A stretch of DNA of 64,000 nt from the NCBI GenBank assembly GCA_002633005.1, contig NMRA01000230.1, positions 187,453-251,452 on the forward strand. The letters run 5' to 3'. How positions within the stretch are numbered: the stretch's first letter is position 1; each line of letters begins with the position of its first letter. Below are positions 4,257-40,485 of the stretch, in pieces. The notes below the pieces were generated by a model. That model was not told the origin of the DNA, searched no databases, and worked only from the letters and a program-made list of their open reading frames with translations. The position numbers and the translations under genes are program-made. Origin of the DNA: Phoronis australis (taxonomy: Eukaryota; Animalia; Phoronida).

Positions 4257-4393
4257 ATTTGCAGGTTGTGTTGCATTAATAATTCAATCACTAAACCTTT
4301 ATTTGCAGGTTGTGTCGCATTAATAATTTCATCACTAAACCTTTATTTGCAGGCTGTGTTGCATTAATAATTTAATCACTAAACCTTTATTTG
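4257..4393. repeat. Minisatellite, about 44-bp unit x3
   Basis: tttgcaggttgtgttgcattaataattcaatcactaaaccttta repeated in tandem. Confidence 0.85.
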
Positions 4394-4831
4394 ACAATTG
4401 TGAAGTGGAAGCGTACATGTCACCAAACTCAAAGACGTTAACTGCTAAACTTGTGATTTAGTTTTAAGTCACTGCTCTTTGTCAGCGCCATATATGGAAG
4501 AGTGGCGCAATTCAAGGACGATGTTATAAAAAAACTTACCCAGTGCAGCCATCCCGCCACCGGTCGTCACGAGGTCGGAGGATCGCGTTATTATGACCAC
4601 TTAAGCTGGTTTGAGGCGAATTAAACAGAATTACACTCATTAATTTTGTACGTCTTAGGTGGATTTTTTGAAAGTGGACAACCAAAAATCACCCTAGAGC
4701 CCATCATCGTGTCAATTTTCAAAAAACAGGCCCGAACCAACATTAACCGAACTACGCATGCCCACCGATAACGAGCTCTATATCTTTTACAACAGCATCC
4801 AGCTGTCCCTAGATGTCCATCTGTCCTTAAC

Positions 4832-7800: not shown

Positions 7801-10800
7801 GACCACGGCTGTGATAGTTTCCGCGGTCCTTACACCTCGAGATACGACTACACGTGTACAGGGAACCAGACAGCATGTGGTAAGTGCCATGGGTCAAACG
7901 ATGACGTAGACTTTGCGTGTCAACAGTTAAGAATTAAGCCTTGACCCGTGTAGCAGCGAAAGGACACCCAGCTAAATCAAGAAAGAGGTCCCTTTAACCT
8001 TGAATGGAAAGTGATATTATAATTCATTTTGCCTTCTCTAAAAAGTATACTTGCACGTAACTGGCCAACGGCTTAATAGTACACTAAACATGAAATATCC
8101 AGAAAGCACGCCCAAAATAGCATGGATCTAATAGTTACGTTAGCGCGTGTGTGAAAAAGCGGGACATTATGTACGTGTGGCGAGATGACGGGAAAATTCA
8201 AAAAGTGAGACGCTCCGCCAAGAGCAGGGAAATAGACAAGTACAGTGTACGCTGCCAGCAACACACAGACTTGGATAGAATTCTTTTATATGGTAAACTT
8301 TTTATTTCTTAATTGTTTTTTTCTTAATTTTACTACACCGGTATTTGTAAATATTACAGATAACACTATTGCTAGGTACACGTAGCTCGGAAATTGGGTG
8401 AACAAAATAAGAAACACCTGGGCAGCAGTTGAACATTGCACGAATGACTTATTATAGAATTATAGAAACATTTGAAAACAGTTATAATATAAATATGCAT
8501 ACACACACACGCAAGACACACAAACACACACGCACGCAGCGACACACACACACACACGCACGCAGCGACACACACACACACACACAGAAACACACTTAGG
8601 TGCTGGTAAAGAATGAAACGTGTGTAAGTGTCGGGTTTGTTGTCTAATTTTGTCGAGAAAGCACTGGTTCTTAGCATCCGTGCCTCAAGACTCTCAACTG
8701 GTAAACAAAAATGAATAAACGAAAATAAAGCAAGTTTGGCTAGAGTTGATTTGATAACTACAACATCTTGTTAAAACCAGTCGAGCACACAACCGGAAAT
8801 TCACTGTGCAAACTTCTCTTATCTAGTCTGGCCGTCGCAAACTCTAAAAACAGATTGAATATATTGGCTTCGAATGCTACAGCTCTGTGATTATAAAGTA
8901 ATACCTTACAGCCATTGCTCCTCTCTAACCCGATGATGGTTCTCAAACCATAAAACGGTATTGGATGGGCAATATTTGATAAAAAGAATGGCTAGCTGGG
9001 TTTGAAGGAGACTGTTTTTTACGTTTCCTATAGCAACCGCTGTTCTATTAGAAGTCGCCAGGTGGCACAAACATATTGGTCTCCAATACTTGGTCAATTT
9101 TAATTGTGTCTACAATTTATTATCAAGCGGTCATTGGCTCATTACCAGATACCACGGGAGTTCGGGTGCGCGCAAGCAGGGGCTCGTAGGGGGGGGGGGA
9201 ATAAACAACGCATAGGCCTTGAACAAACTGAACAAACCCCGTTTACCGTTTTTTTTAGTCAGGTCCGCATTCGAGGCCTGTGCATCTCCACAATTTAGCC
9301 TGGGCGCGCACATCTGCCGAAATTATGGTTATTCCCGTGCCCTGCCCCCCAACCCCTAACTCAAATCCTGGATCCGCCCCTGCATTGCGTCAACAAGTTT
9401 ACGTTTTAGGGTGGCGAGTTTTGGCAACCAACGATAACATTTCGTTGTTACCAGAGGCAGAAAAAGAATCTATTGTGGGTACCGGGAGCTTCAGAAACAA
9501 GGTGTTCCATCGAACTGGAACCGCGGTGTGAAACAGATGTCCCGGAGTTTAAAACAGACTCCCGCACCTTCAAACCGCTAATCACGCCGAAAAACACAGG
9601 AACCCATGGTATCAGACAGGACATCCGGAGACCGAAACACCACTACCGCACTTTCTGTCAGAGTGAATGCGTTGAGTTCAGAAACTCCGATTCAAATTTC
9701 CGTTTTAATAATCGATGAAAAGTTACAGTACACTCTTTAAAGCAAGAACGGTGAAATTGGTGGCGGTGCTGGTCTTTTGAGTGAATAATTCATTTCTCTC
9801 GGTCCATTTCAAAATCTGAAAATTGTGCCGGAAATAATGTACTCTCGACAAGTAAATCGACGAACCCTAAAATGCAGTGAATAGTAAAGATAATCAATTA
9901 AAAGAATTAATCAACAATGGCACTCGAAAGTCGAAATAATATTGTTTTTCGTTTTTAAAGATATTTTGGAAAAAAATTATTATAATCTGAGATTAACTAA
10001 ATATTCACTGAGTAACAACGTGCTGAGAGTATAAATTACGTTGAAGTTTGACCACATAAAAGTTGCATGAGTAGAACTGATAAAAATCAAATAACATAGT
10101 CAATATAATTTAAGTTACGTTTTATCATTGAAACTTTTTAACAAGCAACTGGAAAATACTTGAAGGTTACTGAGAACGGTCTCAGAAAATTTGAAAAATT
10201 ATCCGGGTTTTCTATCCGATCCTTGGGGTTCGTCTTTTAAGGTCGGGGTTCGTGTTTTTCGGACTGGTAAGCTGTTTTGAAGGTGCGGGAGTCTGTTTTA
10301 CACCGGGATTCCAATTTCGATGGAACTCCTTGAGAACAAACTTCGAGTGGTATGGTTAAAAGGGACTCGCCCGTGAGACCACCTGTTGTTGATGCGTGCG
10401 TGCTGCCTACATGTTACTACATTTGACTTCAACGACATCTATACATCAACTTTGCCCGCAAGTGAGAAATTCAGATAAAGCGCACAGTAAAAATTCCAAG
10501 CCCAAAACGACAGTAAATGTGTGTCATATTGTACTATAGGTCACAGAACAGAGAAACTGTTTAATTTCTGAGGACAAAAGACCACTCTGTCTTAGGCGCA
10601 ATGTCAGCCTCACAGAATTAATCATGCAATAGTCAAAAATCGTTGATTTGCCACTTCACCCTTCCTTCCGGTAATGTCTTCCTGGCATTGGTCAAAAGTT
10701 TTGTTTCTCCATTTATAGTTACTGATCCGAAGAAGAACGAATGCGGCTGGATGTCATGTGACTGCGATAAAAAGGCGGCGGACTGTTTTGCTGCTAATCT

Positions 10801-10858
10801 AGACTCATACGATAAGTCACACTACAGCCTCAACGTGAAGAAGCATTGCACGGATTAG
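4832..10858 (+). CDS. Secreted phospholipase A2 (group I/II superfamily, group I-like), 155 aa. Exons 4832-4889, 5992-6142, 7761-7879, 10719-10858
   Basis: GT-AG exons join in frame (468 nt). Signal peptide [20 protein letters not shown], propeptide ending REKR, Ca-binding loop [11 protein letters not shown], catalytic [18 protein letters not shown] (Asp99 equivalent), 14 Cys in the mature chain. AATAAA at 10967. Confidence 0.93.
8500..8595. repeat. (CA)n-rich compound microsatellite (PLA2 intron 3); a shorter (CA)n(CG)n lies at about 6569-6597
   Basis: Read directly from the sequence. Confidence 0.9.
9177..9382. mobile_element. MITE family A copy, inverted relative to 27658-27885
   Basis: Ends ...aatcctggatccgcccctg. 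Internal ggttattcccgtgccctgcccc and aggccttgaacaaac are reverse complements of sequence in the 27658 copy. Confidence 0.7.
9498..10332. mobile_element. Non-autonomous DNA transposon with long imperfect TIRs
   Basis: caaggtgttccatcgaa...aaacagactcccgcaccttcaaa on the left is the inverse of tttgaaggtgcgggagtctgttt...ttcgatggaactccttg on the right. The core is AT-rich with no ORF. Confidence 0.7.
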
Positions 10859-12665: not shown

Positions 12666-15600
12666 ATGGAGGAAACAGGCTTACAGGTACAGTACTTCTG
12701 TAACGTGCACGGTTCATTGATGTTGGCGCTTGCTAGTTGAACTGACTTAAATGCCTCAGTAGTCACTGACAAAATCCCCTAATCTAGTACTCTAGTAGTA
12801 GATGTGAAGCTGGATCTGTGCCTGGTACCATATGTCCTGAGTGGGGAATATTTTGGCCGAGGAGGAAATCAGCCCTCTCCCCCTTAGACAATGCAGTCAA
12901 TAGACAGGCAACTGACGGCTGACGCATTGTCTAACCTCCCCCTCTGTCTCTGTCACCACCAATCCACCCCCCCCCCGCTCACATCACCCTTCATTCAGTG
13001 GCATGCCTCAAGTTGCAGTACTCAGTACTGATTTTATATCCTTGATTAAGGGTACTTTTGCGAATTGGGTGGAGATATTTTTCTGTGATTTAAAAAAAGA
13101 ATTATTGGTAAATACGACTAGGGCTGAATTGACATCATGGAACCTGTGTTGTAATTAATTGGGGCACAACCGAAATTGAATGTCTGGTATGGTTGTTTTT
13201 CTAGCAACATCATGCCAAACCATACGTCATATTTGAATTATTTTGTACACGGTTTTTGGCCAATCGCATATGATGGAAATGCTGCATCGGAGCATCATGT
13301 GTTGCTTCTAATTTATTCATCTCAGCGGAAACAAATTCCCGGCACAGATAAGCTAAACACAGCTTAACAATAATTTATGGCTCTCTGATGCTCTGCGTAC
13401 TGCATGGATAATTAGTCCCATGTATCTTGCCCTGCAAATAACCACGCCGTGTGCAGAATTTGGCGTCGTTGTAGTTTGAATTCAAGTTCATTAACAGCTG
13501 AATTGAACAGAATGTACTTCCATTTCAGGTGTTTTCTCGCTTGACCCCACGACCTGACCTTCGCCTTGACCCTGACCTGTTTGATGACCCCCCAGTGAGG
13601 GGCAAAGTGTACGAGTTCTACGGAGAGACTGGCAAGACAGAACTGATGCTCCATTCTGTCATACAGTGTATACTTCCTGAAAGTTGGAACGTAAGTGAGT
13701 GTTTCATTTGAAAATTTGTTGTTGATATGGGTACTATAGGAATATCTCAATAATTTGGTCTACAACATGGCAGACAAGTGAAATTTTGTTTCTTATTTTA
13801 TCCTTAAAGAGGCCTGGAACGCGATGAACAGACTAAATTGCCTTATTGAAAGTGGTTCTCTGCCACTGAAACAGAATTCAACCTGCTCACCAGGTATTTC
13901 AAAAATCATGAATTTTGTGACTTTTTTCTGGAAAATTCATCACAGGGGAAAGTGAACTATGTACACGCTACTGGACATTGCGAGATGGTACTTTCGTGGG
14001 GAATTGTTTAAAATAAATTTTTGACTAGCTTTAGCGCTCCATGCCTCCTTAAAAGCTAAATTTCATCAAAAAACTCTTCATCTCTTTAACACAGCAACCA
14101 TTCAGTAAGTGTTATCAGAAGTTCTGGACATTCACTACAGTTTTAGAAATTTTTGGGAAAATGTGGCACAGAAAATTTTGGTTATCATTTTTGTTCAAAA
14201 TTGGTAAGATTTATCATTTCCAATTTTTATATTTTGAAAGTTTGGCTAACTCATCAAAACTCATTTGACTTTGTCAAATTTGTAGTGAACTTGCCCTGAA
14301 ATTTTGTTGACAAGAAGAGATTTGCTTTATTATTCTGTTTAAATTACCCCAGGTTTTGTGTAGTTATGCTGTTATAAGTCAGCATTTTACTGTAGTATAA
14401 ATGAGTATGATTATACATTGGTAACATCACGCCACCTATTGTTAAGTCTAAAAATATCTCTGTCACGGTGTGTTGGCAGAAAATTATAGATTCGTCTTGG
14501 TTGGAACAGGATTTTTTCAGACTTAACTATAGGTGGCGTGATGTGTCCAACAAATGGCATGTATGAAGACTAATTATTCTAAGCTTATACTATAAGTATT
14601 AGTCGATTATTTCCTAATGCTAAGTATTGATTTGAGGCAACTTTTTGACACTGTGCTTGGCAGTTCTTTTCTCTACATGTCTGGAAAAATGACTGTGTTA
14701 AACCCTCTACTCAAATTGTCCAATGAATTTAGTTTTTCCCATAGTTGCATTAAACAATACAGAAACACCTTTCTCCAGACTTTAGTAAAGATTCTCTATC
14801 CAGCTTGGTGAATCTCAAAAGTTGGTCTGGCACCTCTCTGCTTGCTGGTGGTCATTTTTGATAAATGGTTAATATAGTTACATATACATGTATCTATTTG
14901 TCTTATCAGTTTTTCACATGCACTGTAGTACAGTGGGCTGTGCATAGAGTATTGGGTCTATTTATAGTCATGGTCATTTTTATCATATTTTGATGGTATT
15001 TTTAATAATTGCTTGGATTGTTGCTGTTATTATTATTATTTTTATCATTATTATTATGATTGGTATATTGAAGAACTTATTATGTAGTTAACACATTGTT
15101 CACTACCACACATTGTTTTGTTTCAGGGTCTACCACTAGGTGGTGCTGGTGCTTCTGTCCTCTATTTTGACCTTGATTGTCATCTATCACTCCTGCGAAT
15201 CGCGGCAATCCTCGAGTCACGCTTCCACCAAACTTTATCTACCTCTGGTCATCAGGGTGTCTCCCAAGCAGACCGTTTCGTCAGAGACTGTTTACAGCGC
15301 CTCCATGTGGTTCACTGTTGTACTATCACTCAACTTCTGGTAACCTTACACGGATTGGACAGCTTCATGGCTCGTGAGTTGAACACATGTCTCCTTGTTG
15401 TCGATAGCATTGCAGCATTCTATTGGACAGATCGACAGGAAGGTCACAATGAGGGTGTTGCCAAGGTGACCATGACTCATCGAGTGATTGAATGCTTGCA
15501 GAAAATTTTGACGGACTATAATCTAATTGGCTTCGTTGCAAAACCAGTGTTGTTTCAAAGGAAGAAAACTGGAGAGACTGATGTGAACAGATCTGTGGGT

Positions 15601-15789
15601 GCAGAAAACAGCAACAGTGGTCTAGAACATTATGAATACCTGCCGAAGGTATGGCAGGCTTTAGTATACAGGCGGTTTATAATAGACCGATGTGGTGCTC
15701 AATACAGAGTGTCTTGGACTGGAAAAGGAATGGCTTGTATGGAGAAAAGCTTTGATATATGTAATGCAGGTGTGACTCTCATGAGTTGA
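12666..15789 (+). CDS. XRCC2: DNA repair protein XRCC2 (RAD51 paralog), 281 aa. Exons 12666-12686, 13529-13690, 15127-15789
   Basis: MEETGLQ|VFSRL...EFYGETGKTELMLHSVIQCILPESWN|GLPLGGAGASVLYFDLDCHLSLLR...LLVVDSIAAFYWTDR...YLPKVWQ matches XRCC2 motifs (GKTEML, CILP, DSLSAFYWIDR, YLCKAWQ). The 3-exon layout with a large last exon also fits. GC/CpG-rich region upstream at about 12500-12660. Confidence 0.93.
14393..14592. mobile_element. Small foldback (palindromic) MITE in XRCC2 intron 2
   Basis: acatcacgccacctattgttaagtct is the inverse of agacttaactataggtggcgtgatgt. Outer ends tagtataa/ttatacta. Confidence 0.65.
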
Positions 15790-16887: not shown

Positions 16888-17108
16888 TAGGGCTTGGAAT
16901 TTTCCTCTTTTAAGGGGATTTCCTCTTTTTTGGTTTTGATTTCTGCGTATTTGATTTCCAGTTTCTTCTTTTTCTTCTCTTTTTTATCATTATTTTGTCT
17001 TTATTCGTGCAAAAACGTTTATTTCATCTAAATTTTACGACACAAAAATTGATGTCATCACATAAGCCTAAATGTGCCTCTTTTTGTAATTGGTCATTCC
17101 AAGCCCTG
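16888..17108. mobile_element. MITE family B copy (TIR CAGGGCTTGGAAT)
   Basis: agggcttggaat...attccaagccctg. Related copies at 39525-39778 and 49511-50020. Confidence 0.75.
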
Positions 17109-23169: not shown

Positions 23170-23325
23170 CAGTGGTGGATTTATAGGGAGGGGGGGGCAA
23201 GAAGGCCAAATTCTCCAAGATTCCATTTGGCAGTTCGGGGGTGCGAATTTCTGACGGGCCGGGCAAATTCCTGGCTAATTCTCTAACCTGACACCCCCTA
23301 ACTCAAAATCCTGCTTCCGCCCCGG
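23170..23325. mobile_element. MITE family A copy, 5-bp TSD GAAAA
   Basis: cagtggtggattt...cttccgccccgg flanked by gaaaa at 23165-23169 and 23326-23330. Internal similarity to 806-959. Confidence 0.75.
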
Positions 23326-23445
23326 GAAAATACCGCATCTAGTTTTATGTGAATAGTAGATTACATCGAAATTCCTCCTCCTGGAAAAAAACGCGGGTTC
23401 ATAACCGCTTTAAACCGCATTCCTTTTCTTTACAGGTGAATCACA

Positions 23446-25622
23446 ATGGGGAAGGCTGTCGCCATATTTCTCGTGCTCGCCATTTTCTGCAGCATCGTTG
23501 TTGAAAGCGAGGCTGGCTGGTTTCGCCGAGTCTGGCGCCGTGTGAGACGAGCTATAAGCAACGGATGGAGCTGGCTACGTCGTAATTGGTGGAAAATCAA
23601 ACAAGCTATGTAAGTTTTATCTTCGTGCCTTCGCACAGTCGGTGACATTATCACCACTCTACCGTGCACTTCGTCACGTCACAGAGCTGATGCACACACA
23701 AAACCCTTATATAAAAATGTAGAACTTGTTTTGTTGGTAGACTAAATAGAACACTTTGTCTCGTTCAATCTGAATTTTAACAATACCAACGGGTCTGCAC
23801 CGCTTCAGATCCACCAGAACTTCCTATCTTCGTAGCATTTATTCTATGATGGTTATTCAGAAAACAGGCAACGCTGTCTCACAACTGTTGGCCATTTGAG
23901 TCAATATACATAGCGGGACACACCTAATAAGACAATAACAAAAAAAACGTACACAATTTCCAATTCCGAAATTAATTAACAGCAATGGATAGCCATTACC
24001 GTTCTAGTAGAACAGCTTGAAGCCCATGCATTTAAAGGATTTTCTGACTATTTTTAAAAGTTAATGATATCGAGTTACAACATAGTATACACTGGCAACC
24101 CAAGAAATGTTTTAGTTGCGCCTAATATGGTTTACTAACCGTATAGGTATTTCATTACACGTGCTTATTGTCTCGCCATCTCACGTTTTTCTAACCCTCA
24201 CACGTGACACTTGACGGTTCTTTTTCTATGTTAATGGAATAGGTTTATGCAATTAGACTTTACATTGAATGGTACTTTGTCATTTATATGTATTTTTAAT
24301 TTATTATTCATCTTAGGGCTCTTACCCTATTTATTGAGCCTTTGCAGTACTTAACTAATTATGAATATTTCAGTCGGATGCTGTGATCAACGCAACGTAA
24401 TTTAACCAAGTAAGTCCGACTGAAATATTTATAATTAGTCATGTACATGTTTGCTGTATTACATTCAAAGTTTTCATACAAGCTTGCGTGATCTTTAGTC
24501 GCGTTTACCTGAGTGCTTTGGTTCGATAGATTTCAAATTTATCGTTGTCTTAAATGTACTTGGTCATAAACGCCTTGAACGGTTTGCCTTCCAGCCCTAG
24601 AGCTTGCCGCTTCGTATGCCGCTACAGAACGTATTATTCGAAACCGTGTAAAATCTGCAGAAATTTCTTCAGAAGATATGGCAAGAGAGAGGTAAGTGTC
24701 ACGCGCGTCAAGTCAGTCTTTAGTCTTTGTGTTCATTGCCCTCAAAACTGTACTTTTGGTGTCTACGTCTTCCGTTAGCCTTTAGCGAAAATTTCTGGAT
24801 GTCGCCTCTAAGCAGTTACACCTACTCCGCTCTACATCTCTTGCATCGTTACCGTTTGCAATAGTCACGGTGAGCGCATATCGGTGCTTTGCATTGCACC
24901 TTTTGTACTTTCAGCTGACGGAAACTAATTACCAGGAGATTATAAAGTATGTCCCAGAAGAAGAAAAGGAAATGGCACTGAGAAGTTTGAAGGAGCCTGG
25001 ATCATATGGTGGGTGATAATTATTCCCCATGAGTTGTGCTATTAAAGTAACCGAAGATTTTTAGCAGACGTTACTGAGCGATAATAAAGTACCCTTTGAA
25101 TTCCCATGCAGCACCATCTTTGTGAAAGCTATTGTGTTGCTCAATGTTTTGGGGTGGAACCTTTTGTGATGGTTCTTTAGTATGTCTAGTTACCATTTCT
25201 ATACTTGATGAGAACAACATGGATCGAATGCTTCAATGGAAAATCCACGGTCGCTTTCTTGATTTAACCGAGTTTGCATTTTAATAGGGATCGGTACTTA
25301 TATAATATTAACATGAATAATTATGCCATTTTAACGTTTTTTTAAACAGTTAAAACTGTTCATATGGGTGTTTCCCTAAGGTGAAACAAAGACTTCTTAC
25401 GTGTCTGAGACTATGACGTATTCAAAGTCAAGTAATACGAGGCTCATGCACAAAGCATTTGAACACAATTCACGAGAAAATTTCGATAAATGTAAAAGGA
25501 CACGCCAACGAACTTTTTTGCACGAACTGTTGTGACTTTGAAATCCGTGTGTGATGATGATAATATTAATAATGATAATAATAATGATAACAACAACAAC
25601 AACAGCAGCAACAATAATAATG

Positions 25623-25659
<37 letters not shown>

Positions 25660-26674
25660 TATTAATTTTCAGGAATGTGCATAGATACAAAAATCAGAGT
25701 AGGTGTCTTCCCAGACACATTGGAAATTGAATTCGCATCGTGTGTCCAGCATTGCGAATATAATGCGCTTTGTGATGTTCACATGGTCAACCGTGAACGA
25801 ACATGCGGCCACTTGTCCGTTCTGTAGATACATTTTGGTAACCAAGTAATTTAACGAGAAATACAAACACGGCAAAAAGACACAAAATTTCAAAATTTTC
25901 CATTAGCATGCACTTATTCAGTGGACACTCACATTTGCGTATTAGGGAAACATTTGAGCAAATATTTGTTTGGAAACTTCACTATTCGTAAGGCCAAAAA
26001 GTGGGCTCATTTAAGGGTGACTGTGTTATTTATTTATGCAGATCAGTTCATCGACGAAGGTTTCTACGATTCAAACACTATGGATGAAAAAGACCAGCTC
26101 GTAGAAAGGGCAATGCAAGGTATGAAATGAAATTTTACTATGAAGACCGATTTAACCATCCTAAAGACGTACATGTACGTGTATCTTTCAAATTTAGACT
26201 CGCCAAGGTACGCAGTTAACCTCAGTATCTTGCGTGTTCGGCAAGATGTTCTATAGTGTTTCTCTAGAAGGCAAAATGGCCGCCATTGTACAATATTTGA
26301 TCTGAGGGTTATCCAAGGATGGGGAATTATATGAAAAAACGGTACGTGACGTCACATTTTCCTTTGCATTAACCACTAAGATTTCTCGCGCAAGAGTCGC
26401 ACCAGTTGGTAGCATTACACGTCCTGGAGTTATCTTTTGAGGTCAAATAATGTTTTTTTATTCATGGTCCTGTAACAGAATTCGTAACAAAGTAGTTGCT
26501 CACTGTATTTTCGAAAATTCACTGACATGTTTTATCGTTTGCTACTAACACCAAAATAGTAATTAAAAATGCTCTACTTCCATTTTAGAGGATGACGTCG
26601 ATGACGACGATGACGTAGAAGAATCCTATGAGCGCGAGCTGAACTCGTACTTGAATGAGCAAGAAGTGAACTAA
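23446..26674 (+). CDS. Secreted cationic Trp/Arg-rich peptide precursor (putative antimicrobial peptide), 172 aa. Exons 23446-23609, 24595-24691, 24915-25008, 26042-26119, 26589-26674
   Basis: Five GT-AG exons with compatible phases (2,0,1,1) give MGKAVAIFLVLAIFCSIVVESEA-GWFRRVWRRVRRAISNGWSWLRRNWWKIKQAIPRACRFVCRYRTYYSKPCKICRNFFRRY-GKR-ELTETNYQEIIKYVPEEEKEMALRSLKEPGSYDQFIDEGFYDSNTMDEKDQLVERAMQEDDVDDDDDVEESYERELNSYLNEQEVN*. The parts are signal peptide, cationic core, amidation/convertase site and acidic tail. Confidence 0.85.
25553..25665. repeat. (AAT)n/(AAC)n microsatellite
   Basis: Read directly from the sequence. Confidence 0.95.
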
Positions 26675-27399
26675 ATTACGAGGCAAGAATTCCTTGATGA
26701 TGCTATATTGAACTCGCCTTCTGTCAAAAATAGCTTTTGGTTTATATCATGTTTTAGAGCTGGTCAGATTAAAAGTGACATATGTGTTTGAAAAAATGAC
26801 CGTAGTTCATGAATACTTGAGACCAGACTTTACAAGATGGTTTTACCAGCATGTTCATTTTGTGTGCCTCGACCAGCTTCGAGGAGGCAGTGTGGTTTAG
26901 TAGGATGCGTGTCGTGTGTTCGACTTCCACTGGGCACATTGCTAGACCCTTGAGTCAGGTCTTTAACCCCTATAATCAGTTTTAAGTACATATTTATTTA
27001 GTAAAACATGAATATTGCCCCAGGTGATCATTGCAAATGGGCACACCTGAGTGACCTGCGCAAAACTGGTGTAAGGTCTACCAGACCACCTTTGAGGCTT
27101 ATTTATTTCGATAAGTGGTCAAATCAGAAGTTACGTTTTGACAAAAAGGTGGTTTGTGGCACTTTAAGCCATAAAAATAACAATAGCAATGATAAGTAAG
27201 GATGACATTATTGATAATGATAACTGTGATAATTGAAAAAATCATGACAGTGATGAATCGGAGATGATGGTAACCGTAAGCGTACTGATAAAGACGGTAG
27301 CGGTTGTAAAACTGGTCAGAAAAGACGGCAGCGGTTGTAAAACCGGTCAGAAAATCACAGCGTGGCCAATAAGCGTCATATTCCTTTTTTTATTTTTAG

Positions 27400-27560
27400 G
27401 ACTCTATCAAGACTGACTGCCAGCTTCCGCGGACAACGAATCTACCTTGATGAAGGGAGTTAGTGTACTTCAATTGATTCAGAATATACAGAATGCGTAG
27501 CTAATACAACCACAGTGTGTTGCTGCTTGGCTTTATTAATGCAATAAATTATATTGAAAA
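27400..27560 (+). other. Putative 3' UTR terminal exon of the peptide-precursor gene with polyA signal
   Basis: Strong acceptor ttcctttttttatttttag|27400 and AATAAA at 27543-27548. Candidate GC donor AG|GCAAGA at 26683, 8 nt after the stop. Confidence 0.45.
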
Positions 27561-27657
27561 TCTTTTAGCGTTCAGTATTCTAATTGGAAAGCATTCGGGT
27601 ACGGTGTGGGTTAAACTGAAATGATGATCCAAAAAACAAACAAATGCCAGTCTATTT

Positions 27658-27885: not shown

Positions 27886-29921
27886 TATTTATTGCAATAT
27901 AAGTTACTTACATTATTCGTTATGACCTGCGCTGGGTGCCATGCTTAATGGAACCCCTTTGATTGAGAAATACATATACATGCGCAGAAGTAACAGCTAG
28001 AAATTGGAATTAACTTTGTCAGTCAACTTGAAGACGGCCGCCAGGCATACTGACTTAAGGATAAATTGAATGATTGGCCACGTTTAAAACAAGTTTTACG
28101 TTCCCGTTCAAATATGGGCCGTGCATCAGCGAAGAGCCCTTCTCAATAAGAGCTTAAGACAAGGCCTGGTTGGGTTGCAGAAAACGTAAATTCATGATGA
28201 CGTAGCAATGAAAATAACACAGAATTAAATTCTCTGAAAAGATGGACTTAGAAAAACAGCCACTTAATGCATAGAAAGCGCATAAACAAACCTAAATACA
28301 ACGGAACACAAAGTAGTGGAAATACAACTACATGAAACATTGGTGTCGGGGGGTAGTTTAGTAAATGTGTACTGCATGGTATTAACAGTATGTGTAGCTG
28401 ATGTGAAAGTGACTCTAAAACAGACACTGTTCAAGACATAAGAATACAAAGACACGAAACAAACAGCCATAGAAATGTTGAATGGTAGTCTCATTCCCTA
28501 TGACCTATGACCTATGACATAAACGCTAATGAGAGGGCCACCAAGTGACGTCATGGGATATGGACAACATGACACATCTGAAGGAGATTTGAGTAACGAT
28601 CCAGCGGCAACAGGCGGTCATATGAGAAGGACAAGAATTTCAGTGAAATTGGTAACATCGCGGAATCGAACAATGACACCAGCTCCACAGTAGCAGCCGA
28701 GCGTTCTGGCGCCGCTACGTCAAATCCCAATGTCAATGTCTTTTAAGCGGTAAAGACAACGACCTTGATTTCATTAATGTCTGCTAGACGATAATGGCGT
28801 TTTTCGGCGTAAAACTGGTATTATCCTTTTAAAGCAAACATGCAAAGTTCGCGTATGATGGCACGAATTCCTAACCAAATACAATTTTAATTAGCCATCG
28901 CTCCCAGTTTTATACTGAAGAGAATTATGCATTGATGACTGTAGTAATTTTGGGTAGACTGAGGGACCACAAACAATATTTTTTGCCAGACTCGGTTCAT
29001 AATCCGAACCCTTCGCCCGTGGTTCTGTTTTGGGACAAATTATCTACCGTAATTGTTAGATTTGCTAGTGACTAAAAACATCAGGCTAATTGTTGATGGA
29101 CCATCAGACACACACTCCAAAACCCCAATTGGATGGTTGGTTCTAGTTTTCAAGACCAGCTGCATCAGTGAATATACAATTTGAGGGATATAACCCAAAA
29201 GGACACAAAGCCAGCTTGTCGTAATTATGTCAGTGAGCACCCATATCGCCGGCCAGGTATTCAGATGATCCAGTGAGACAATTAAAAACCCGAAATATCA
29301 GTTTAAAACAAATGCTCAGAATCGCATTATTTGTTCATGCAGACGTTAAACAAAGCATTGCAAAACGGGGAGAAAATTCAAAATCTACATATACAGATCA
29401 AATTAGGACTCTTGGAAAATACACTAGTAAACTGTGAAAAACACGCAAAAATCAAAATAAGAACAATTCTTGATTTAGACCGTATACCGTTATGAAATTG
29501 GTCTTGGCCTGAGTTCAGAGCAAAAGAAATGAAACCCGGTTATTAGAAACAACAATCGTCGCCTGCCATTGCTTTTAATGCCAATGATTACAAGATGCTT
29601 TAGGCCGGCCAGGGAAAAACTAGTCACGTTTGGCAAGCCGACAGGAGTAGTGTAAGTAGCGGATGATAGATGTCGCTTAATGTGTGTAGAGATCGTAGAT
29701 CTCGCATAGCTTTCATCTCGCTCCTTGGCTTATCAGTTATCTTTGGCAACTTCCTAATCTTTGTCAGACCTTGCAGATGCTGATTTTGAAAGGTTCAATG
29801 TCCATATTACGACAGTCACGTCATGTGTTGGAAGACACTAGATAGGTAACGCGTTGACATCCAAGAAACTGAGAGTAAAGAGACTCGACACTTGACAAAA
29901 CAGACTGTGATTGAGAGTACG

Positions 29922-32900
29922 ATGAGCAGCAAGAAGGTTGCAGTTATTGGCGCAGGTAATGTCGCAGGCCTTGGGTTGGGTGAATGGAACAGGAAGGCTC
30001 CTTCGTCGGATTTTCTGTAGGCCTACGTTGTAATCTAGGAATGAGTGCAACGACGGTCGTGAGATCGCCGACTTCCGAATCAAAGCTAGGTGATAGTATG
30101 GGGCTCACGCATTTTGAGAACCAATTTTCTCCACTGAATCACGGGCATCAAATAAGGGTTCTCAAAATGCTGGATTCATGTGACTATTTGCCGCTTAAAA
30201 GCCAAGGGGCCATGACCTTGCAGTTGTGTGAAGTAACTGAGCTAGTGCAGTGAAATTGGCCGGTGATTGGGGAGCAGTTTTGTGGGGGGGTCTGTGGTGA
30301 CCAGGGAATGGACTGAGCTTATGCCCACTGGGGAGCATGTAGTTTTTATTTATTAGTTGAGTGGGTATTTGGACTATTTGGAAAATGTCCTTTCAAAAAC
30401 ATGAAATGAAATCGAATATATTACATGCCTCACAGGGCATTAATTTTTCGGAGAGGGAGGTAATATTTTCAAAAGCTGCATCAATTGTTTAATATGCTGC
30501 AGTTTTAAAGCAAATAATTCGATCATTCGCTCAAGAATGTTTTCACAGAACATTTTACCCTACTGTAAATGTGGTCCTTAGAAGGATGTGTGCATATTTC
30601 ACATTCAGCAAACAACGACGGTCCTTCATTCATACTGTGTACCTTACCTCGAGTCACCCTAAATCGTTGTTAAATGACTGTTATATGAGTCTGACATCGC
30701 AATTCCAAAATATAGTGTCTTGCCAAATAACAAAGTTTTAGGTCAAAACATATATTACGAGTCTGTTACATTTTCAAAACACGCTGTTACCACAAATACA
30801 TCCATGGGTGTACGTTTGGAAATTTTTTCTGAAAAATGCCCGTGTACTTTTACGTGGGCCTATTTTCGTAAATTCCTGGTGTGTAATCAAAGTACTACAG
30901 CATGACATTCCAGCCGTATTCATATCTATGGTAAATCTCATGATGTTTTCAATCTTGTCGCTGCTCGTTGCATGACACGTTTGTCGCTCGTTAGTTGCCT
31001 TGTGATGGACTGCTGCCTGATCTTGACAATTGAGATCACTCATTGGTCAAATAATCCTGTCAATCCCAGTCAAAGGTCAGCCAGCGGCTATAGTCAGAGG
31101 GTAGCTATAGCAATCCCCAAGCGCATACAGGTGCGAGGTTGAGAATATTGCGAGACTTTCAGTAAGTCATTATAGTTGTAAAGAAAAAAACCTATAGTGT
31201 ACCTTAATGAGTGTGAGAGATGTGTGCTAAAATTCGAGATAGGATCTCATGCCAGGCAGGGAAGAAAGGTGAGTTGGACGGGAAGCTGAGAGCACGGCTA
31301 ACAGACGATAGGTATTTGGGCAGTTCAACTCAAGAATGAGAGTTAGCTAGGGTGGGCTCCACATACCCATAGTGATTAATATTCAACAACAATCATCTTG
31401 AGTGCATACTGTGAAATTATGGGCCATTCAAAATCATTTAGAATATGTGGTTGTAATATGATATACATATAGTTATTTCAAAGATCGTTTTTATTAGAAT
31501 GAATAGGATCTGTAAATAAACAAAAGCAGGACTTAGCCTAACGATATGATAAAGTTCTACTATGTGAAATACGGCTTAAAATAGTCTTATTTACCAATAA
31601 AAGAGTTTGACAGCACAATCGTGGGTTGAAGCGAGTAGCGGAAGGAAGTCCTATAGCGACACCTATCGTTCGCCGAACAAAGTATTCTCTTATGATTTTA
31701 TTAATTGCTGCAGTCTCTTACACACCCTTGGGGCTCCGGCCCTAACCCCGCCTACCTGTGTCAGACTCTCCAATTATGTCATTGCAGGCGCCAGCGGTCT
31801 TACTGCCATCAAATGTTGTCTCGACGAAGGACTAGAGCCGATCTGCTACGAGCGCTCTGATGATCTAGGTGGACTATGGCGGTACACAGAGACATCTGTT
31901 GAAGGCAAGATCTTGTTGCTATATAACCTGATACTACCGAGCTTGCTTGTTACTCAGTAAGCGTTGAGATAACCTCTGTCGGTATACCGAACACATGTTG
32001 ACTTATTGTGTGCTACATAGGTGACGAATTGTCATAGAGATTTATTGAACTTGGTAGGTTTTCCAATTTAGCTCAATAGTTAACAGTCTCCAGTTTCTTG
32101 AATTGAACCAACTAGTCTGTATTCTTTCCTTTAATCTCTGATATGGTTATTCAGTCTGCATATTAGTTCAAGAGTTCACAGCATCATAGAATATGCCCTT
32201 CTTTGACTGAAGGACTATGGTCATTTCTCAAAGGCTATGGCTGACGTTGATATTCGGACGGGTTCTACTACTTTGGTACCCCTCTAGTACCATTTTTTCT
32301 CTACACCTGTGTCTCCTAAACTTTTTTGTAGGATATTTGTGAAATTTGGCAGAGGTGTTCCTATGGAGCTGACACCATTTTGTGACGTGTTTCAGACCCA
32401 TTCGACTACCACCATGCCCCCTTGTGGCAATTGTAGTTGCATGTTTATGCTTGCCTTTCTCTGTATTTTCGGAGTTCATCAATGGATTTTCGATAAATTT
32501 GGTTCTGTTTTCGTATGGATTTGATGTATTTTTGCACCCCTTATTGGCAATTCAAATTTTTACATTTACATCTGTATCTTCAGAGTTCTTTAACAACTTT
32601 TATTGAAATGTGGCTAACAAGTTTTGGGTATGATGGTGATAGCATCAATTCATTTTGGGATGGATTTGAGGTATTCTGCACCACTTAGTATCCATTTTTA
32701 GCACTAATAACTATCCCGGGAAGCACACTGTTTGCGTTGCTGCCGTGGACGCTCTGCGTTCACTTGCTCTAGTTTCTTTTAAAATTTGTTTAATTCATCA
32801 ACATATAGTATAGACTGGATTATATTACTGGCCAGAACTTAACAGAAATGCAACAAGCACTTGTTCTGGACAGAATTTAGGTCTGTCTATCTTTTTACAT

Positions 32901-35900
32901 TCAAGTTTCTTGCTTCTTGCATGTTCATTGGTATTTTACTTTGAAATGACTAGAAATTGTTCGGGTCTATGCTGTAAAGTAGTCCTGGTTGCCATAAATC
33001 TCATTTACCAAAAGTATTTCCACGCTGTTGTTCCATTATTTTTCGTTTAATTTTATTGCTTCACAACTTCTGAGTGATTGATTGGTCATTTGCAGGTGAG
33101 GCGTGCGTGATGAAGTCGACAGTGATTAACACCAGCAAGGAGATGATGGCTTATAGTGACTTCCCTATACCTGAGGAGTTCCCAGCCTTCATGCACAATA
33201 CCAAAGTATGCGGCTATAGTTAAGAACTAATGAAGTACACTGCTAAAGTACAGTATTAAAGTACAGTAAGGTACAGGACTAAAGTACAGTACTAAGGTTC
33301 AGTACTAGAGTACATTGCTAAAGTTAGTGCTAAAGTTCATTACTAAATGTTTAGTATTAAAGCTCTAAGCACTACTAAAGTACAGTACTAAAGTACAGCA
33401 CTAATGTGCAGCACTGAAGTTCAGTACTAAAGTACAGTGCTTAAGTTCAGTTTTTAAGTTCAGTACTAAAAGTTTAGTATTAAAGCTCTAATCACTACTA
33501 AAGTACAGTGCTGAAGTACAATACCAAAGTACACCACTAAAGTACAATGTACTAAAGTACAGCACTAAAGTACAGTTCTAAAATACTGCACTGAAGTTCA
33601 GCACTAAAGTTCAGTACTAAAATACATTAGTGAGTCATAGGTGAATTTAGAAGTTCCGGCCCCTCTCCCCTAACGAAGACCAGAATAATGCTAGTTTTAG
33701 AGTTGTCGCAAGGGTCTGTCGTTTGGAAATGTTGGTTGAGCCCGACAAGGTGCGATTTCAATATTGTGACTGTGATCACTTTAAATAATTATATATTATG
33801 TTCATCACTGAATTTATTTATAAATCAGTGATTTCGTGTCACATAAATAAAAATTATTAGTCTTGATACATGCCCTGTGTTGGTCACATTACACACATGT
33901 TTGGTAGTGAACAAGGAGAATATGCCCCTTTAAATAAATTAGATTTCCGTCCAGGCACGAGTTACAAGCCAATTTACTCAACCATTGAAAAGTGTCTCGT
34001 ACCGTTTTTCAAACAGGTTGTCTCGGCATCGTCTAAAAGATGACACTTTTGACAAAGTTGGACCAGCTGATCAATAATTGGACCACCTGATCAATAATTG
34101 GACCAAATGATCAATACTTGGACTACTTTCCAATGGTTGCTGAAGATGTTTCTGATGCAGCTGCTGCTATGGAATGGCAGGTTTATCAAACACAGATTTA
34201 GAGGTGCTCAGGAGGCCTTCGTTTACGGTAACAACAAAAATGCATTCGGCTAGCCCTTTTTAGGTCTCCAAATTTTGTCCTTTCGAAAATTGTGGTTGCT
34301 GCCCCTGACGTCCAAATTCCACCAGAGTGGCTATGAAAGTTTTGAGACCATTTTTTTAGTTAACCCTCTTGTGTCATTGTTGTGACAGGAAAGGACCATT
34401 TTAAGTGCTGGTGATAAATTGTGTTGTTGTGTATTGCAGGTGTGTGAGTACCTGAGGAAATACAGCCAACATTTCGGCTGTGACCAGTATATTAACTACA
34501 GAGTGGAGGTGGTCTCGGTCAAAAAGTCTCCCAACTATGATGACAGTGGCAGATGGAACCTTCATATAAAGTGTGTAATTATTAAAAAATGTAATCAGAA
34601 TATTAAAGCAGTTATCAACCTGCATTCAATCGAAAAAACAGATTTTAATTTAGACTACTTACCGTTATGAGGTTGATCTAAAATTGTTCAGTGTAGTCAA
34701 AATAAGAGTGTTTGCGGGGCTTGTAAAGAACTGACACACGTTATTGCTTAATTTCAAGCTCTGCGAGTTGACTTAATTTCCCATTACATTGACTATGGTC
34801 TCGAAAATAAGCAAGCGTCAGTTCTTTGCAAAATCAAAAATCATGTCTCATCTGAGTGAGAAACAAGTTGAGGTCACTTTTTATAGTTGTAAACAGTCTG
34901 AAACATTTTTTTCTATGGAATGCGGTTAATAGTTGCTTTAACTATGGATTGGAAGTGGTCTGGGAACAAACCAAACGAAAACGTTATATGGGTCGTGGCA
35001 GCTGAGTGCTAATAGAATTTCTACGTTATGACAGATGAGTGTAAGTGTAATTTACAGTCTGTCATAGCGAATACTTTAAATCATTTTAAAAACAGTTTTA
35101 AAAAATGATTTTGGCTAAATTTCTAGTCATTTACAATGCTGATGCACCTGTTCTATTGTTCATGAAACAATCACGCAAACGTATTCTTACAGTCATGAAG
35201 TTGTGATTTGCAAAATCTCCAATTTCATTGGTCACTTTGTCTTGCATAGCGACAGAAGAAGCCGACTTTGAGACCAGTTCAGCCATTATTCAATTTTTTC
35301 TTAATCAAGCTCTGTATCCTTTATAGGAACTTAGCAACAGGCAAAGAAGAGACAAAAACTTTTGATGCTGTTTTTGTCTGCACCGGGCATCACGCTGATG
35401 CTCACAGACCCAAGTTTGACGGCTTGGATGGTTTCCGTGGAAACGTGACCCACACGCATGAGTACAAGAATCACCGTGGGTACGAGGACAAGAGGGTTGT
35501 CGTCATAGGAATTGGTAACTCGGGAGGAGATGTTGCGGTAGAACTGAGCAAGATAGCCAAAGAGGTTAGCATATTAATGTTGTGCTAATAAGTGCTTGGG
35601 AACTTCAATATTGCTGACTCATTGCACCTATGGAATGAAGTGCGGGTGGTCTAGAATCTAATGTCAACACATCTGTTGGTCTTTCTAGTTATACAATGTT
35701 GTGTATCTTTGCAAAATTTCATAGGAGGGCTGATGTGTAACCTACATATTATACACTTGTTTGCAGTGGTATTGTTTTTTCCAAAACCTTATCCAATTGT
35801 TTGTCTCGTACATCTCCAAATAATAATAATAACGATGATTGCCAATAATTGCCTGTAGTGCAAGATTCGAGGCAGCCAAGTGGGCCTGCCCCCCTGTTGA

Positions 35901-38900
35901 CAACTTTAGTACTTCTAGTAAGCTTTTGCACGTAGTTTTGCCAACCATTTATAAATGCCATTCTGCATACTCACTATTCTAGTACAATAGCAGACACTAG
36001 ATGGCTCTATCTATACTGGGTCATGATAGGTCAAAGAAATGACGTCACGTATTTTAGCAATGAGGGCTGACCCTTTGGCAATTACAAGCAGGGCTCAGAT
36101 TTGTCCCTACATTATAATACTCTTATACTTTTACTTCCATGCTGATGTCCCTTGGGTAACGACAACATTTTTATAATCTCACTCTCTGAATCTCTGAATG
36201 ACAACTTGGGAACTTGAGTGTGTTTCTGACTTGCTCAAACCCGACTACATGCTGGAGACTGGAACGAGGATACATGCTCACTGCAAACTGAGCTACCGTA
36301 CTACCCTCTATTGATAATTCTAGTTTTTGGACAGGACATGACTCGTACTTATCATGGAAAACCAGGAAATATGCACTCTGCGAACAATAGCCTCCAGACG
36401 TGGAAAGTTTGTGACAAATAAAAGATGGTAAAAACTCCTGGAAAACTTCTGAATCATAGAATTTTTGAAAAACTCATGTAGAGACAATAGCACGAGTTTG
36501 TACGTTCTTGTGGAAACTATTTCCTAGAAAATGAAATCCAAAATGGGAGGTAACCATGCTGATTGCCAGTTTCCACTTTTCTTGTAATATACTCATTGAT
36601 ATTTAACACACAGGTTTACCTCAGTACTCGCCGAGGATCATGGGTATTAAATCGAGTTGCAGAGAATGGCTTGCCCGTCGACATGGTTCACTCCACACGA
36701 TTCAACATGGTTGCTAGGCAATATGTATCCTTGTCGAAATTGAACGATGTCGTTGAGGGCAGATTGAACCGTCGGTTTGATCACGAGAACTTCGGCTTGA
36801 AGCCAAAGCACCGATTCACAGCGCAGCATCCTATGGTGAATGATGATCTTCCTAACCGTATTATCTGTGGTGCAGTGGTGGTAAAACCAGATGTGAAGAA
36901 ATTTACGGAAACCAGTGTCGAGTTCGTGGATGGTACAAAAGCCGAAGTGGATGCGGTGGTTTTGGCGACGGGCTACATCTTCGGTTTCCCATTCTTAGAC
37001 TCATCCCTTGTGCGGGTGGAACATAATGACGTCAACTTGTACAAGTACGTGTACCCACCAGAGTTGAAGCACCCTACATTGGCTGTGATTGGCTGCTTCC
37101 AGCCGCTGGGTGCCATCATGCCATTATGCGAGATGCAATGTCGATGGGCTACTAGGCTGTTAAAGGTATTCTTTGCTTGTTTCTGTTTTGTGATCATGAT
37201 TCAGAAACAAAGTCGAACATTTGGCTGTTTGTGTCCTGACTATGAATTTATTTAGCTGTTGAAGGTATTGAGAACAGAAGGGGAATTTTATTTATGAGTA
37301 TAGTGGAAGAGTTTAACAAGTCTTTGATTTTTTACCTTCGTAGTCATTTTCATCACTCCTTTTGCAACATTTTGCTGAGTGACTTTTAGGGATAGTTTTT
37401 AACTTTTTAAGTTTGCACATCTCTGATAAGCCCATTTAAAAGAGTAAAACACTTAAACATATTCCATCAATTTTTCTGGCTTTGTCAAAGTTATGGCTCA
37501 ATTGGTGGAGGAAATCTGAAGAAAAGGTTTCTGCAGTGTGTTCTAAATTGTGTATGAATTCAAAATTAGCTGAAAAGTGTTTTGTTCTGAAATTTACTTA
37601 GCTTAAAATGTACATTACAGTTTTTCAACTAGAAAGTCCTCCTTTTATGAAGTTTGATATTGTATTAATTTTCATAAAAGTCTTGGGCAATTTCTAACTT
37701 AGTTGTTGTTCTTTAAAACGTTAACAGGTACTTAACAGGTTCTACAAATATAATTTTTGTCACAATTATCCCATTGCTCAGATTAATCTAATGAAATTTG
37801 TATTTCACGCTACTGCTCTCAGGGAAAAGCTGCTCAGCGTTATCCCGTAAATTTTATGTAACACGTGGGCCAAGGCCTTAAATGTTGAAATACATGAATT
37901 TGAAAATTATGATCCTTTTCAGAAACTGTGTATTCTTCCTTCTTCGGAGGCCATGTGGAAAGATATTCGTATGAAGCGAGAAGCAATGAGCCGTCAGTAC
38001 GTTAAGTCGCAGCGTCACACCATTCAAGTGGACTACGCTCAATTCATGTGCGAATTAGCCGAGCTCATTGGTTGCCAGCCTCACCTCTGTGAGTACTTTT
38101 GAGCTTTGTTACATTTTTAGGTTTTGTTTACAACGCAGTCATATATATCAAGGGCTGTTTTGAGTGGGAGAAATGAACCTTTATAGGTAACCAGTAAACG
38201 AGATATTCTATCATGTTTTGAANGTCAACTTGTACAAGTACGTGTACCCACCAGAGTTGAAGCACCCTACATTGGCTGTGATTGGCTGCTTCCAGCCGCT
38301 GGGTGCCATCATGCCATTATGCGAAATGCAATGTCGATGGGCTACTAGGCTGTTAAAGGTATTCTTTGCTTGTTTCTGTTTTGTGATCATGATTCAGAAA
38401 CAAAGTCGAACATTTGGCTGTTTGTGTCCTGACTATGAATTTAAGTTTTGTTGCTTTTTGTGTTTTTTGTAGCTGTTGAAGGTATTGAGAACAGAAGGGG
38501 AATTTTATTTATGAGTATAGTGGAATAGTTTAACAAGTCTTTGACTTTTTACCTTCGTAGTCATTTTCATCACTCATTTTGCAACATTTTGCTGAGTGTA
38601 ACTTTTAGGGATAGTTTTTAACTTTTTAAGTTTGTACATCTCTGATAAGCCCATTTAAAAGAGTAAAACACTTAAACATATTCCATCATTTTTTCTGGCT
38701 TTGTCAAAGTTATGGCTCAATTGGTGGAGGAAATCTGAAGAAAAGGTTTCTGCAGTGTGTTCTAAATTGTGTATGAATTCAAAATCAGCTGAAAAATGTT
38801 TTGTTTTGAAAATTACTTAGCTTAAAATGTACGTTACAGTTTTTCAATTAGAAAGTCCTCCTTTTATGAAGTTTGATATTGTATTAATTTTCATAAAAGT

Positions 38901-40485
38901 CTTGGGCAATTTCTAACTTAGTTGTTGTTCGAACATTCCTTAAAACGTTAACAGGTACTTAACAGGTTCTACAAATATAATTTTTGTCACAATTATCCCA
39001 TTGCTTAGATTAATCTAATGAAATTTGTATTTCACGCCACTGCTCTCAGGGAAAAGCCGCTCAGCGTTATCCTGTAAATTTTATGTAACACGTGGGCCAA
39101 GGCCTTAAATGTTGAAATACATGAATTTGAAAATTATGATCCTTTTCAGAAACTGTGTGTTCTTCCTTCTTCGGACGCCATGTGGAAAGATATTCGTATG
39201 AAGCGAGAAGCGATGAGCCGTCAGTACGTTAAGTCTCAGCGTCACACCATTCAAGTGGACTACGCTCAATTCATGTGCGAATTAGCCGAGCTCATTGGTT
39301 GCCAGCCTCACCTCTGTGAGTACTTTTGAGCTTTGTTACATTTTTAGGTTTTGTTTACAATCCAGTCATATATATCAAGGGCTGTTTTGAGTGGGAGAAA
39401 TGAACCTTTATAGGTAACCAGTAAACGAGATATTCTATCATGTTTTGAACTACTAAAAGAAGTAAAATCTTCAGCCAAAATTGTACAAAACGATAATGGA
39501 TTTTTGTGCCTCTTTTATTTGTCACAGGACTTGGGAATCTTCCTCTTTTAAGAGGATTTCCTCTTTTTTGGTTTCAACTTCCTCTTGTTTGATTTCCAGT
39601 ATAATCTTCATTTTTCATCTTTTTTATCATGATTATTTTGACTTCATGCCAACAAGGTTTGTTGCTGTTAAATTTTACAGCACAAAAATATTTGTATCAC
39701 ATAGGCCTATTTATTTGTAGAATGGTACATCACCTGGAAAATTTTCCTCTTTTTTGTCATGGTGCATTCCAAGCCCTGATGTCAGTCACTGCATCTGTTT
39801 GACAGCTTTAATAAAATATGAAACTTGCTAATTTGGGAAGTTTAATCCACAGCACTGCTATTTTTTCAAATGCGTTGGGAACTCTTGTGGGCTAGTTGTC
39901 ATCTAGTAACTTCACAGATAATTTGGAAACATTATGTCAGAAAAGAACATTTGAGTGCATCAGAATTGAAAGCTTATGGTATGAGTATGACTAGGCGGCC
40001 ATAATAGAAAAATATTTGAAAATTAGCCTCAAATTACATCAAATATATATACAGATTAGTGCTAAAGATTCTCTAGGCACATATTTACCTGAGTTTACCC
40101 AAGTCACATGACTCGTCAGTGGCTTTATGTCTGTGGACTGTTTTATTCGGGTCTTGGAAAAGTATAAAACTGATTTTTCTTCTGATTGTACATCATATTA
40201 ACGCTGTTTACTGTAGCAACTTTGTGAATTGTTCCAGTCAAACTCTGGCTTACTGACCCTTCACTAGCCTGGACGATTTTGTTCGGTCCACTCACCCCGT
40301 ACCAGTTCCGACTGCACGGCCCAGGAGCATGGGCAGGGGCAAGGAAAGCTATCGAAGGCCAGATGGAGAGAACCGTTCTACCAACCAGACGAAAACCATT
40401 ACCTAAGAAGTCCTGGGCAGGTGTCATTAAAGCTCTGTTTGTAATTTGTGCTCTTTTTGTAGTATTGTTTTTGTTTTTTGGATAG
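29922..40485 (+). CDS. FMO5: Flavin-containing monooxygenase (FMO5-like, class B), 531 aa. Exons 29922-29955, 31788-31904, 33096-33205, 34440-34570, 35327-35564, 36614-37165, 37923-38088 (duplicate copy 39150-39315), 40238-40485
   Basis: FAD motif [36 protein letters not shown] motif [16 protein letters not shown] motif [26 protein letters not shown]-terminal hydrophobic anchor. Exons sum to 1596 nt. Orthology to FMO5 specifically is not established. Confidence 0.92.
33228..33630. repeat. Degenerate about 13-bp minisatellite (taaagtacagtac)n in FMO intron 3
   Basis: Read directly from the sequence. Confidence 0.85.
34060..34125. repeat. 20-bp tandem repeat x3
   Basis: ggaccagctgatcaataatt units. 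Confidence 0.8.
37031..39449. repeat. About 1.2-kb tandem duplication joined by a single N (38223), probably an allelic overlap from assembly
   Basis: 37031-38222 is nearly identical to 38224-39449, with SNPs and small indels. The second copy starts mid-exon directly after the N. Confidence 0.9.
39525..39778. mobile_element. MITE family B copy
   Basis: caggacttgggaat...attccaagccctg. Internal similarity to 16888-17108. Flanks ttgtca/atgtca. Confidence 0.7.

Follow-up and report, generated by a model that had tools for sequence, protein, structure and literature searches.

An expressed six-exon gene of Phoronis australis that probably encodes a membrane-active host-defence peptide of an undescribed family

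In several groups of validated peptides the precursor runs from a signal peptide to a cationic part and then to an anionic tail. This order is given, in the passages accessible to us, for the myticalins (PMC5577615), the Ciona LCAMPs (PMC7387483) and the styelins (PMC8659048). Anionic propieces are described as neutralising the mature peptides in the accessible part of one review (PMC10608444), and the myticalins are described as taxonomically restricted (PMC5577615). Here we analyse a 64,000-nucleotide stretch of the Phoronis australis genome (the window), in which an original prediction, made from the letters of the DNA, had proposed a precursor laid out like those of known host-defence peptides, a likeness with which those passages agree. 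Our analysis shows the locus to be an expressed gene of at least six exons, and we consider it likely that its product is a host-defence peptide that acts on membranes and belongs to a family not yet described. A signal peptide, a peptide, G-K-R and an acidic tail also make up the layout of hormone and toxin precursors.

With the myticalins, as far as their description is accessible, the Phoronis precursor shares a signal peptide, a cationic Arg-rich peptide with pI > 11, a Lys-Arg site, an anionic C-terminal extension, a Gly amidation signal and membership of a multigene family (PMC5577615); the modiocalins, which like the myticalins come from Mytilidae, show the same likenesses in layout in the available part of their source (PMC12294457). 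Myticalins, however, are described in those passages as Cys-free and 23-47 aa long, and as encoded by three exons, one of which holds signal, mature part and KR site (PMC5577615), whereas the Phoronis peptide has 60 aa and four Cys and its precursor is spread over five coding exons. Styelins and the Ciona LCAMPs (Ci-MAM, Ci-PAP) resemble it in having signal, amphipathic cationic helix and anionic tail in that order (PMC8659048, PMC7387483), and styelin D also in its Trp at position 2 and its Gly amidation signal (PMC8659048). Unlike the Phoronis peptide, the styelins of the passages seen are linear, Cys-free and 31-32 aa long, with a 26-aa tail (PMC8659048), and the LCAMPs there are Cys-free and without basic processing motifs (PMC7387483). 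As to homology with styelins or LCAMPs, exon 1 gave no match in the databases searched, where short peptides are hard to find. The 60-mer shares its layout with styelins, LCAMPs and myticalins; because these are Cys-free and shorter, and the myticalins have another exon plan, it is by such described features a member of none.

The original prediction had also pointed to a GW(F/L)(K/R)(K/R) start shared with styelin D, centrocins and HFIAPs. A partial check, against accessible text of PMC8659048 that does not show the sequences, puts Trp second in styelin D and the centrocins and at position 7 in the HFIAPs, which are classed there as cathelicidins. Cathelicidins such as the HFIAPs place a cathelin prodomain first, whereas here the cationic part directly follows the signal and the propiece is C-terminal; Pfam gave no cathelicidin match on the five coding exons. 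Centrocins, in the partial description available, have an N-terminal prosequence and a heavy and a light chain with one disulfide, unlike the Phoronis precursor, which has no N-terminal prosequence and no Cys in its tail.

Other likenesses concern the predicted fold, and each is limited to the accessible parts of the sources. Turgencins from Synoicum turgens are cationic and amidated, with nested disulfides on a helix-loop-helix-like fold, as predicted here, but they have six Cys (C1-C6/C2-C5/C3-C4) in about 36 aa and no long N-terminal amphipathic helix, against four Cys in our peptide (PMC7024374). Plant alpha-hairpinins (PMC4695807) and amphioxus mBjAMP1 are Lys/Arg-rich helix-loop-helix peptides with two disulfides, again matching our prediction; the alpha-hairpinin motif is CxxxC-(x)n-CxxxC (PMC4695807), whereas the later pair in the Phoronis module reads CxxC, and a 32-residue helix is fused to that module. 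Nicomicins, from a polychaete, are likewise two-part peptides with an N-terminal amphipathic helix and a disulfide-closed C-terminal part, the arrangement predicted here (PMC10608444, PMC6265681). They differ in having one disulfide and 33 aa and in lying at the C-terminus of a BRICHOS precursor (PMC10608444), whereas our gene has no BRICHOS, no Pfam match on five exons and a cationic part directly after the signal. Finally, mature residues 4-12 are identical at 8 of 9 positions, compared by eye, to the first nine residues of the designed peptide H-RWV16 (PMC11504230). Unlike the Phoronis peptide, H-RWV12-16 are synthetic and 12-16 aa long (PMC11504230), and we read this likeness as convergence on a low-complexity amphipathic pattern, not as homology.

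Splicing the five coding exons (Table 1), which end at 26674, gives an open reading frame of 519 nt that encodes 172 aa plus stop, with GT..AG at 4 of 4 introns, in full agreement with the original prediction of an in-frame product with canonical sites. The RNA evidence comes from four public runs (X1-X4), under one species label and from two studies, with about 18-19% of X2-X4 read. An RNA-seq check had been proposed for the junctions 23609/24595, 24691/24915, 25008/26042 and 26119/26589. At 90% likeness, all four were seen in three of the four runs: by 12, 9, 6 and 6 junction reads in X2, by 5, 3, 1 and 4 in X3, and by X1 contigs spanning all of them, the third with one differing letter at the joint. 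X4 had no read over any of the four at this likeness. First mates lie on the minus strand across exons 1-4, the usual sign of plus-strand RNA, and X1 can be taken as RNA because its intron bins are empty, those of X2 and X3 being almost so. The gene is real, spliced and expressed.

Table 1. Features of the peptide gene, in positions of the window.
Feature	Position	Strand	Evidence
Possible acceptor for an upstream untranslated exon: pyrimidine tract and AG 10 nt before the ATG	23421..23435	+	sequence
Coding exon 1, starting at the ATG: 23-aa leader (predicted signal peptide); predicted mature residues 1-31, Arg/Trp-rich amphipathic helix; furin-type R-x-R-R site; weak 18-residue internal repeat	23446..23609	+	splicing, RNA, composition, model
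Coding exon 2: hinge at a Pro, followed by the CxxxC-x9-CxxC module (predicted helix-loop-helix) and G-K-R-E	24595..24691	+	splicing, RNA, AlphaFold2 model
Coding exon 3: first portion of acidic propiece	24915..25008	+	splicing, RNA
Coding exon 4: middle portion of acidic propiece	26042..26119	+	splicing, RNA
Exon 5: last portion of acidic propiece, stop codon 26672-26674, 8 nt of 3' UTR	26589..26682	+	splicing, RNA
GC..AG intron of 717 nt within the 3' UTR	26683..27399	+	RNA, sequence flanks
Untranslated exon 6, AATAAA at 27543; 3' end approximate	27400..27565	+	mapped RNA

The predicted number of five exons holds for the coding part, a sixth, untranslated exon after a GC-AG intron having been overlooked. 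One X1 contig and five X3 reads depart from the contiguous genome after 26682/26683, and the departing sequence has a single exact map position, at 27401 (0.01 expected by chance). The flanks are GAG/GCAAG at the point of departure and a T-rich tract with AG at 27399, and together these observations place the GC..AG intron 8 nt past the stop, with exon 6 beyond it. The gene has at least six exons, five of them coding. The introns bordering exon 2 have unequal phases, so this exon cannot be skipped in frame, and the mature peptide is interrupted by a phase-2 intron. At the other end of the gene, an in-frame stop lies three codons upstream of the ATG. The acceptor-like site before the ATG hints, from its sequence, at an upstream untranslated first exon; no RNA joint was found there in reads or contigs of X1-X4 at 90% and 80% likeness. 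Just upstream of the gene is a dispersed repeat (23200-23326), to which hundreds of reads from either strand match in part. The samples differ greatly in expression, with 0 of 81 reads in X4 and 52 of 347 in X2 at 95% likeness or more. The depth of the X1 contigs (3200-5700) is very high in that one sample, depth being a poor measure of expression.

The composition of the precursor agrees exactly with that given originally: a 23-aa leader, a 60-aa segment with 19 K/R, no D/E, six W and four C, then G-K-R and an 86-aa tail, in which we count 30 D/E. The leader is a predicted signal peptide, judged by hydropathy (highest 11-residue Kyte-Doolittle mean 3.3, at residues 5-15) and by its A-x-A-like end. 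Computed values for the 60-mer are a charge of +18.7, a pI of 11.8 and a mass of about 7.9 kDa, and for the tail a charge of -23.1 and a pI of 4.05; the propeptide as a whole has a charge of about -2. Two blocks of opposite and nearly equal charge could also belong to a secretion with a structural or adhesive role (in tube cement, mucus or an egg coat) whose cationic and acidic halves are complexed, and richness in Arg, Trp and Tyr brings marine adhesive peptides to mind. We regard this as very improbable: the convertase and amidation site conserved between the two blocks, together with a Cys module that is predicted to fold, speaks rather for a bioactive peptide that is released.

Mature residues 1-32 have a hydrophobic moment of 0.69, equalled by 11 of 20000 shuffles; four shorter helical windows are weakly amphipathic alone (248, 1468, 4392 and 1099 of 20000 shuffles reach them). 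Single-sequence AlphaFold2 models, made separately for each exon, have helix 3-30 in the exon 1 part (pLDDT 70, with a low pTM of 0.23) and helices 3-13 and 19-28 in exon 2 (pLDDT 72, with a low pTM of 0.30). The cysteines lie at mature positions 36, 40, 50 and 53, beyond a hinge at Pro33, and their spacing suggests that nested disulfides C36-C53 and C40-C50 (mature numbering) probably close the modelled hairpin. The sole KR of the precursor is at 85-86. A furin-type R-x-R-R motif ends at precursor residue 35, and a cut there could split the 60-mer after mature residue 12. Exon 1 also contains an internal 18-residue repeat (reached by 36 of 20000 residue shuffles and 4 of 5000 codon shuffles), which we rejected as proof of duplication; its boundaries were picked after seeing it, and 18 residues are five helical turns.

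Gene structure, splicing, composition and paralogous RNAs are observed; the steps after transcription, all of which we infer, would run as follows. The signal peptide would direct the precursor into the secretory path, where the acidic tail (about -23) would mask the cationic part (about +19) and so protect the producing cell, a role of anionic propieces treated in the accessible part of the review cited above (PMC10608444). A prohormone convertase would cleave after Lys85-Arg86, a carboxypeptidase would remove the basic pair, and PAM would convert Gly84 to an amide on Tyr83; this chemistry follows that given for the myticalins in the accessible passages (PMC5577615). The released 60-mer would bind anionic microbial membranes through the Arg/Trp amphipathic helix of residues 1-32 and then permeabilise them, while the four-Cys helix-loop-helix beyond Pro33 would add charge and protease resistance. 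A second cleavage may happen at the R-x-R-R site. In a bolder version, which we put forward tentatively and think doubtful as a whole, the gene would represent an undescribed, lineage-restricted family in which a natural Arg/Trp/Val helix, almost identical to the designed RWV antibiotics, is joined to a helical hairpin that has two disulfides and an exon to itself, and the furin-type cut would give two active peptides, an N-terminal 12-mer and a 48-residue amidated helix-plus-hairpin.

Homology searches were run exon by exon, mainly with exons 1 and 2. For exon 1, a word search among longer proteins returned five candidates, none with E <= 1, and searches among proteins of near length and of PDB by sequence gave no match. 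Two HMMER matches of exon 1 among 1.84 billion representatives (E = 3e-5 and 5e-5) were rejected as single-member, unnamed tandem-repeat translations whose scores are made up of 5 and 7 weak stretches. The ESM Atlas held no usable match for exon 1 and gave exon 2 scores of just 0.75-0.76; among metagenome contigs, none of 595 pattern matches was confirmed; and Pfam gave nothing beyond sub-threshold chance matches on the five coding exons. By sequence, the PDB candidates for exon 2 were granulysin (E = 0.56) and moult-inhibiting hormone (E = 1.3), which are not significant. With the exon 2 model, Foldseek found no match and VIA none at Z >= 5; the best hit of a fold search (Z 3.2, rmsd 2.6, 32 aligned) belongs to generic hairpins. 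These results have no bearing on fold novelty. Of 17 papers returned by a full-text literature search with the first five mature residues, none concerns such peptides by its title, and topic searches found no family of such architecture in the main texts covered, which are mostly those of open-access papers. From these sequence and literature searches a novel family is likely, with the proviso that small animal peptides are poorly represented in collections and relatives may sit in supplements or figures. The original failure to recognise the peptide as belonging to a described family thus agrees with the exon-wise searches run. The gene is, moreover, one of a multigene family with a conserved processing site; these paralogues, the predicted Cys helix-loop-helix module and the furin-type site had been overlooked in the original prediction.

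That family is seen in the RNA, which at 80% likeness contains further diverged copies, about 80-85% alike and with the Arg/Trp start kept; there are at least two, because an X1 contig and X4 reads differ at codons 27-29. Of 84 letters compared in the signal region, 14 are different in the X1 paralogue contig (678 nt). Comparison by hand shows that it has the same residue at 8 of the next nine codons, six via a different codon, and that it keeps the R-x-R-R motif. Among the changed codons listed for X4 reads, silent ones make up 5 of 6 in exon 1 and both of the 2 in exon 4, and in exon 3 the residue is replaced at 10 of 13. Nine X4 reads, compared by hand, preserve G-K-R-E where exon 2 ends, the codons for K, R and E each carrying a silent change. 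Apart from this G-K-R-E end, exon 2 has no paralogue read matching it at 80% likeness, which makes it the most diverged exon. RNA pieces from separate exons are unphased, so the copies are known as pieces and not as whole transcripts. Possibly the species label covers several pooled individuals or cryptic species, from which the diverged copies would come.

In X2 and X3, close variants of this gene have the charge-keeping replacements K71R, E102D and E103D, as well as T67V, which is irrelevant to charge either way; they are silent at F61 and at C63, the latter supporting one cysteine only. An abundant transcript (274, 207 and 17 reads, in X2 and X3 far above the gene) has the 32 letters of 24977-25008 in common with it, apart from two silent differences. 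Read by hand, this transcript has a stop at codon 108, immediately ahead of those letters, and its sequence diverges from exactly the end of exon 3; it may be a short-tailed paralogue. By analogy, the X1 and X4 copies and the charge-keeping variants suggest a pattern of family variation that resembles that of defence peptides. The same copies bear on whether the gene could instead be a neuropeptide or hormone precursor with an amidated product acting on a receptor. Prohormones are typically laid out with a signal peptide, G-K-R and an acidic peptide at the C-terminus, but several copies 80-85% alike under one species label, and a 60-residue, strongly amphipathic product of about +19, are unlike conserved signalling peptides; Pfam had no hormone family on the five exons and exon 1 no homologue in the searches above, and we find this origin quite improbable.

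No second copy of the peptide gene lies within the 64-kb window, and the gene is not in a tandem cluster there. Nor is there a kappa-B consensus near it, the nearest being at 16914 (the window has 9, where 5.3 are expected). Several other genes occur in the window, all on the plus strand. A secreted-type phospholipase A2 gene (5934-10855; Pfam PF00068) has at least three exons (5934-6143, 7723-7941 and 10622-10855), the first of which matches group I/II PLA2 structures. A large exon at 15088-15786 belongs to a Rad51-family gene, presumably XRCC2. An FMO5-like flavin monooxygenase gene (29850-40479) contains exons that occur twice. Residues ~345-393, which lie within the part encoded by 36611-37165, are encoded again by 38212-38358, and residues ~395-452 are matched by 37935-38099 as well as by 39144-39326; partial tandem duplication or mutually exclusive exons could account for this. 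The monooxygenase has no close relative among the 120 matches listed (best 65%). In a tree of 44 of these 120 with the window gene, built from matches in which no echinoderm, hemichordate, nemertean, phoronid or tunicate is named, the window gene falls in a group of 30 rows (95/87) together with molluscs, annelids, one brachiopod and unnamed rows; it lies outside a mollusc group of 19 rows (99/94) and apart from chordates. The tree tentatively suggests a lophotrochozoan other than a mollusc, and probably not a tunicate. A protein O-fucosyltransferase gene (49981-55307; Pfam PF10250) has at least five exons, and a tandem repeat at 48889-49490, with a unit of about 30 nt, is open in several frames.

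A cytolytic peptide of mucus or venom, directed at predators or prey, would use the same processing and the same membrane mechanism as a host-defence peptide. A strongly cationic peptide without acidic residues suits anionic microbial membranes, and a charge of about +19 with no acidic residue favours such targets over those of a toxin. The very high X1 contig depth, poor measure of expression though it is, would fit a gland product. The secreted-type phospholipase A2 gene, 12.6 kb upstream, could be seen as a companion of a venom component, but it is separated from the peptide gene by the Rad51-family gene and may be a chance neighbour. H-RWV16, a similar Trp/Arg-rich helix, can lyse red cells (25-30% lysis) according to the accessible text (PMC11504230), whereas searches of Pfam and PDB with single exons gave no match to a toxin family. 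On balance we think a cytolytic role unlikely, and retain a host-defence peptide as our preferred reading.

A host-defence peptide of this kind implies no new mechanism, since its precursor logic and membrane attack are already well known, and lineage-restricted peptide families with the same layout turn up regularly in under-studied invertebrates. The Trp2 and Trp7 positions are brominated in styelin D, centrocins and HFIAPs, as the accessible text has it (PMC8659048), and the Phoronis peptide is a candidate substrate for Trp bromination, a poorly understood modification. Annelids and their kin have yielded few known families of defence peptides; a review, in its accessible part, puts the annelid total at 38 peptides of six families, from 14 species (PMC12466427). 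An expressed multigene family missed by similarity searches would contribute another scaffold, new in that a long Arg/Trp helix is joined to a cystine-closed hairpin, and its natural variants would show which positions of the peptide tolerate change.
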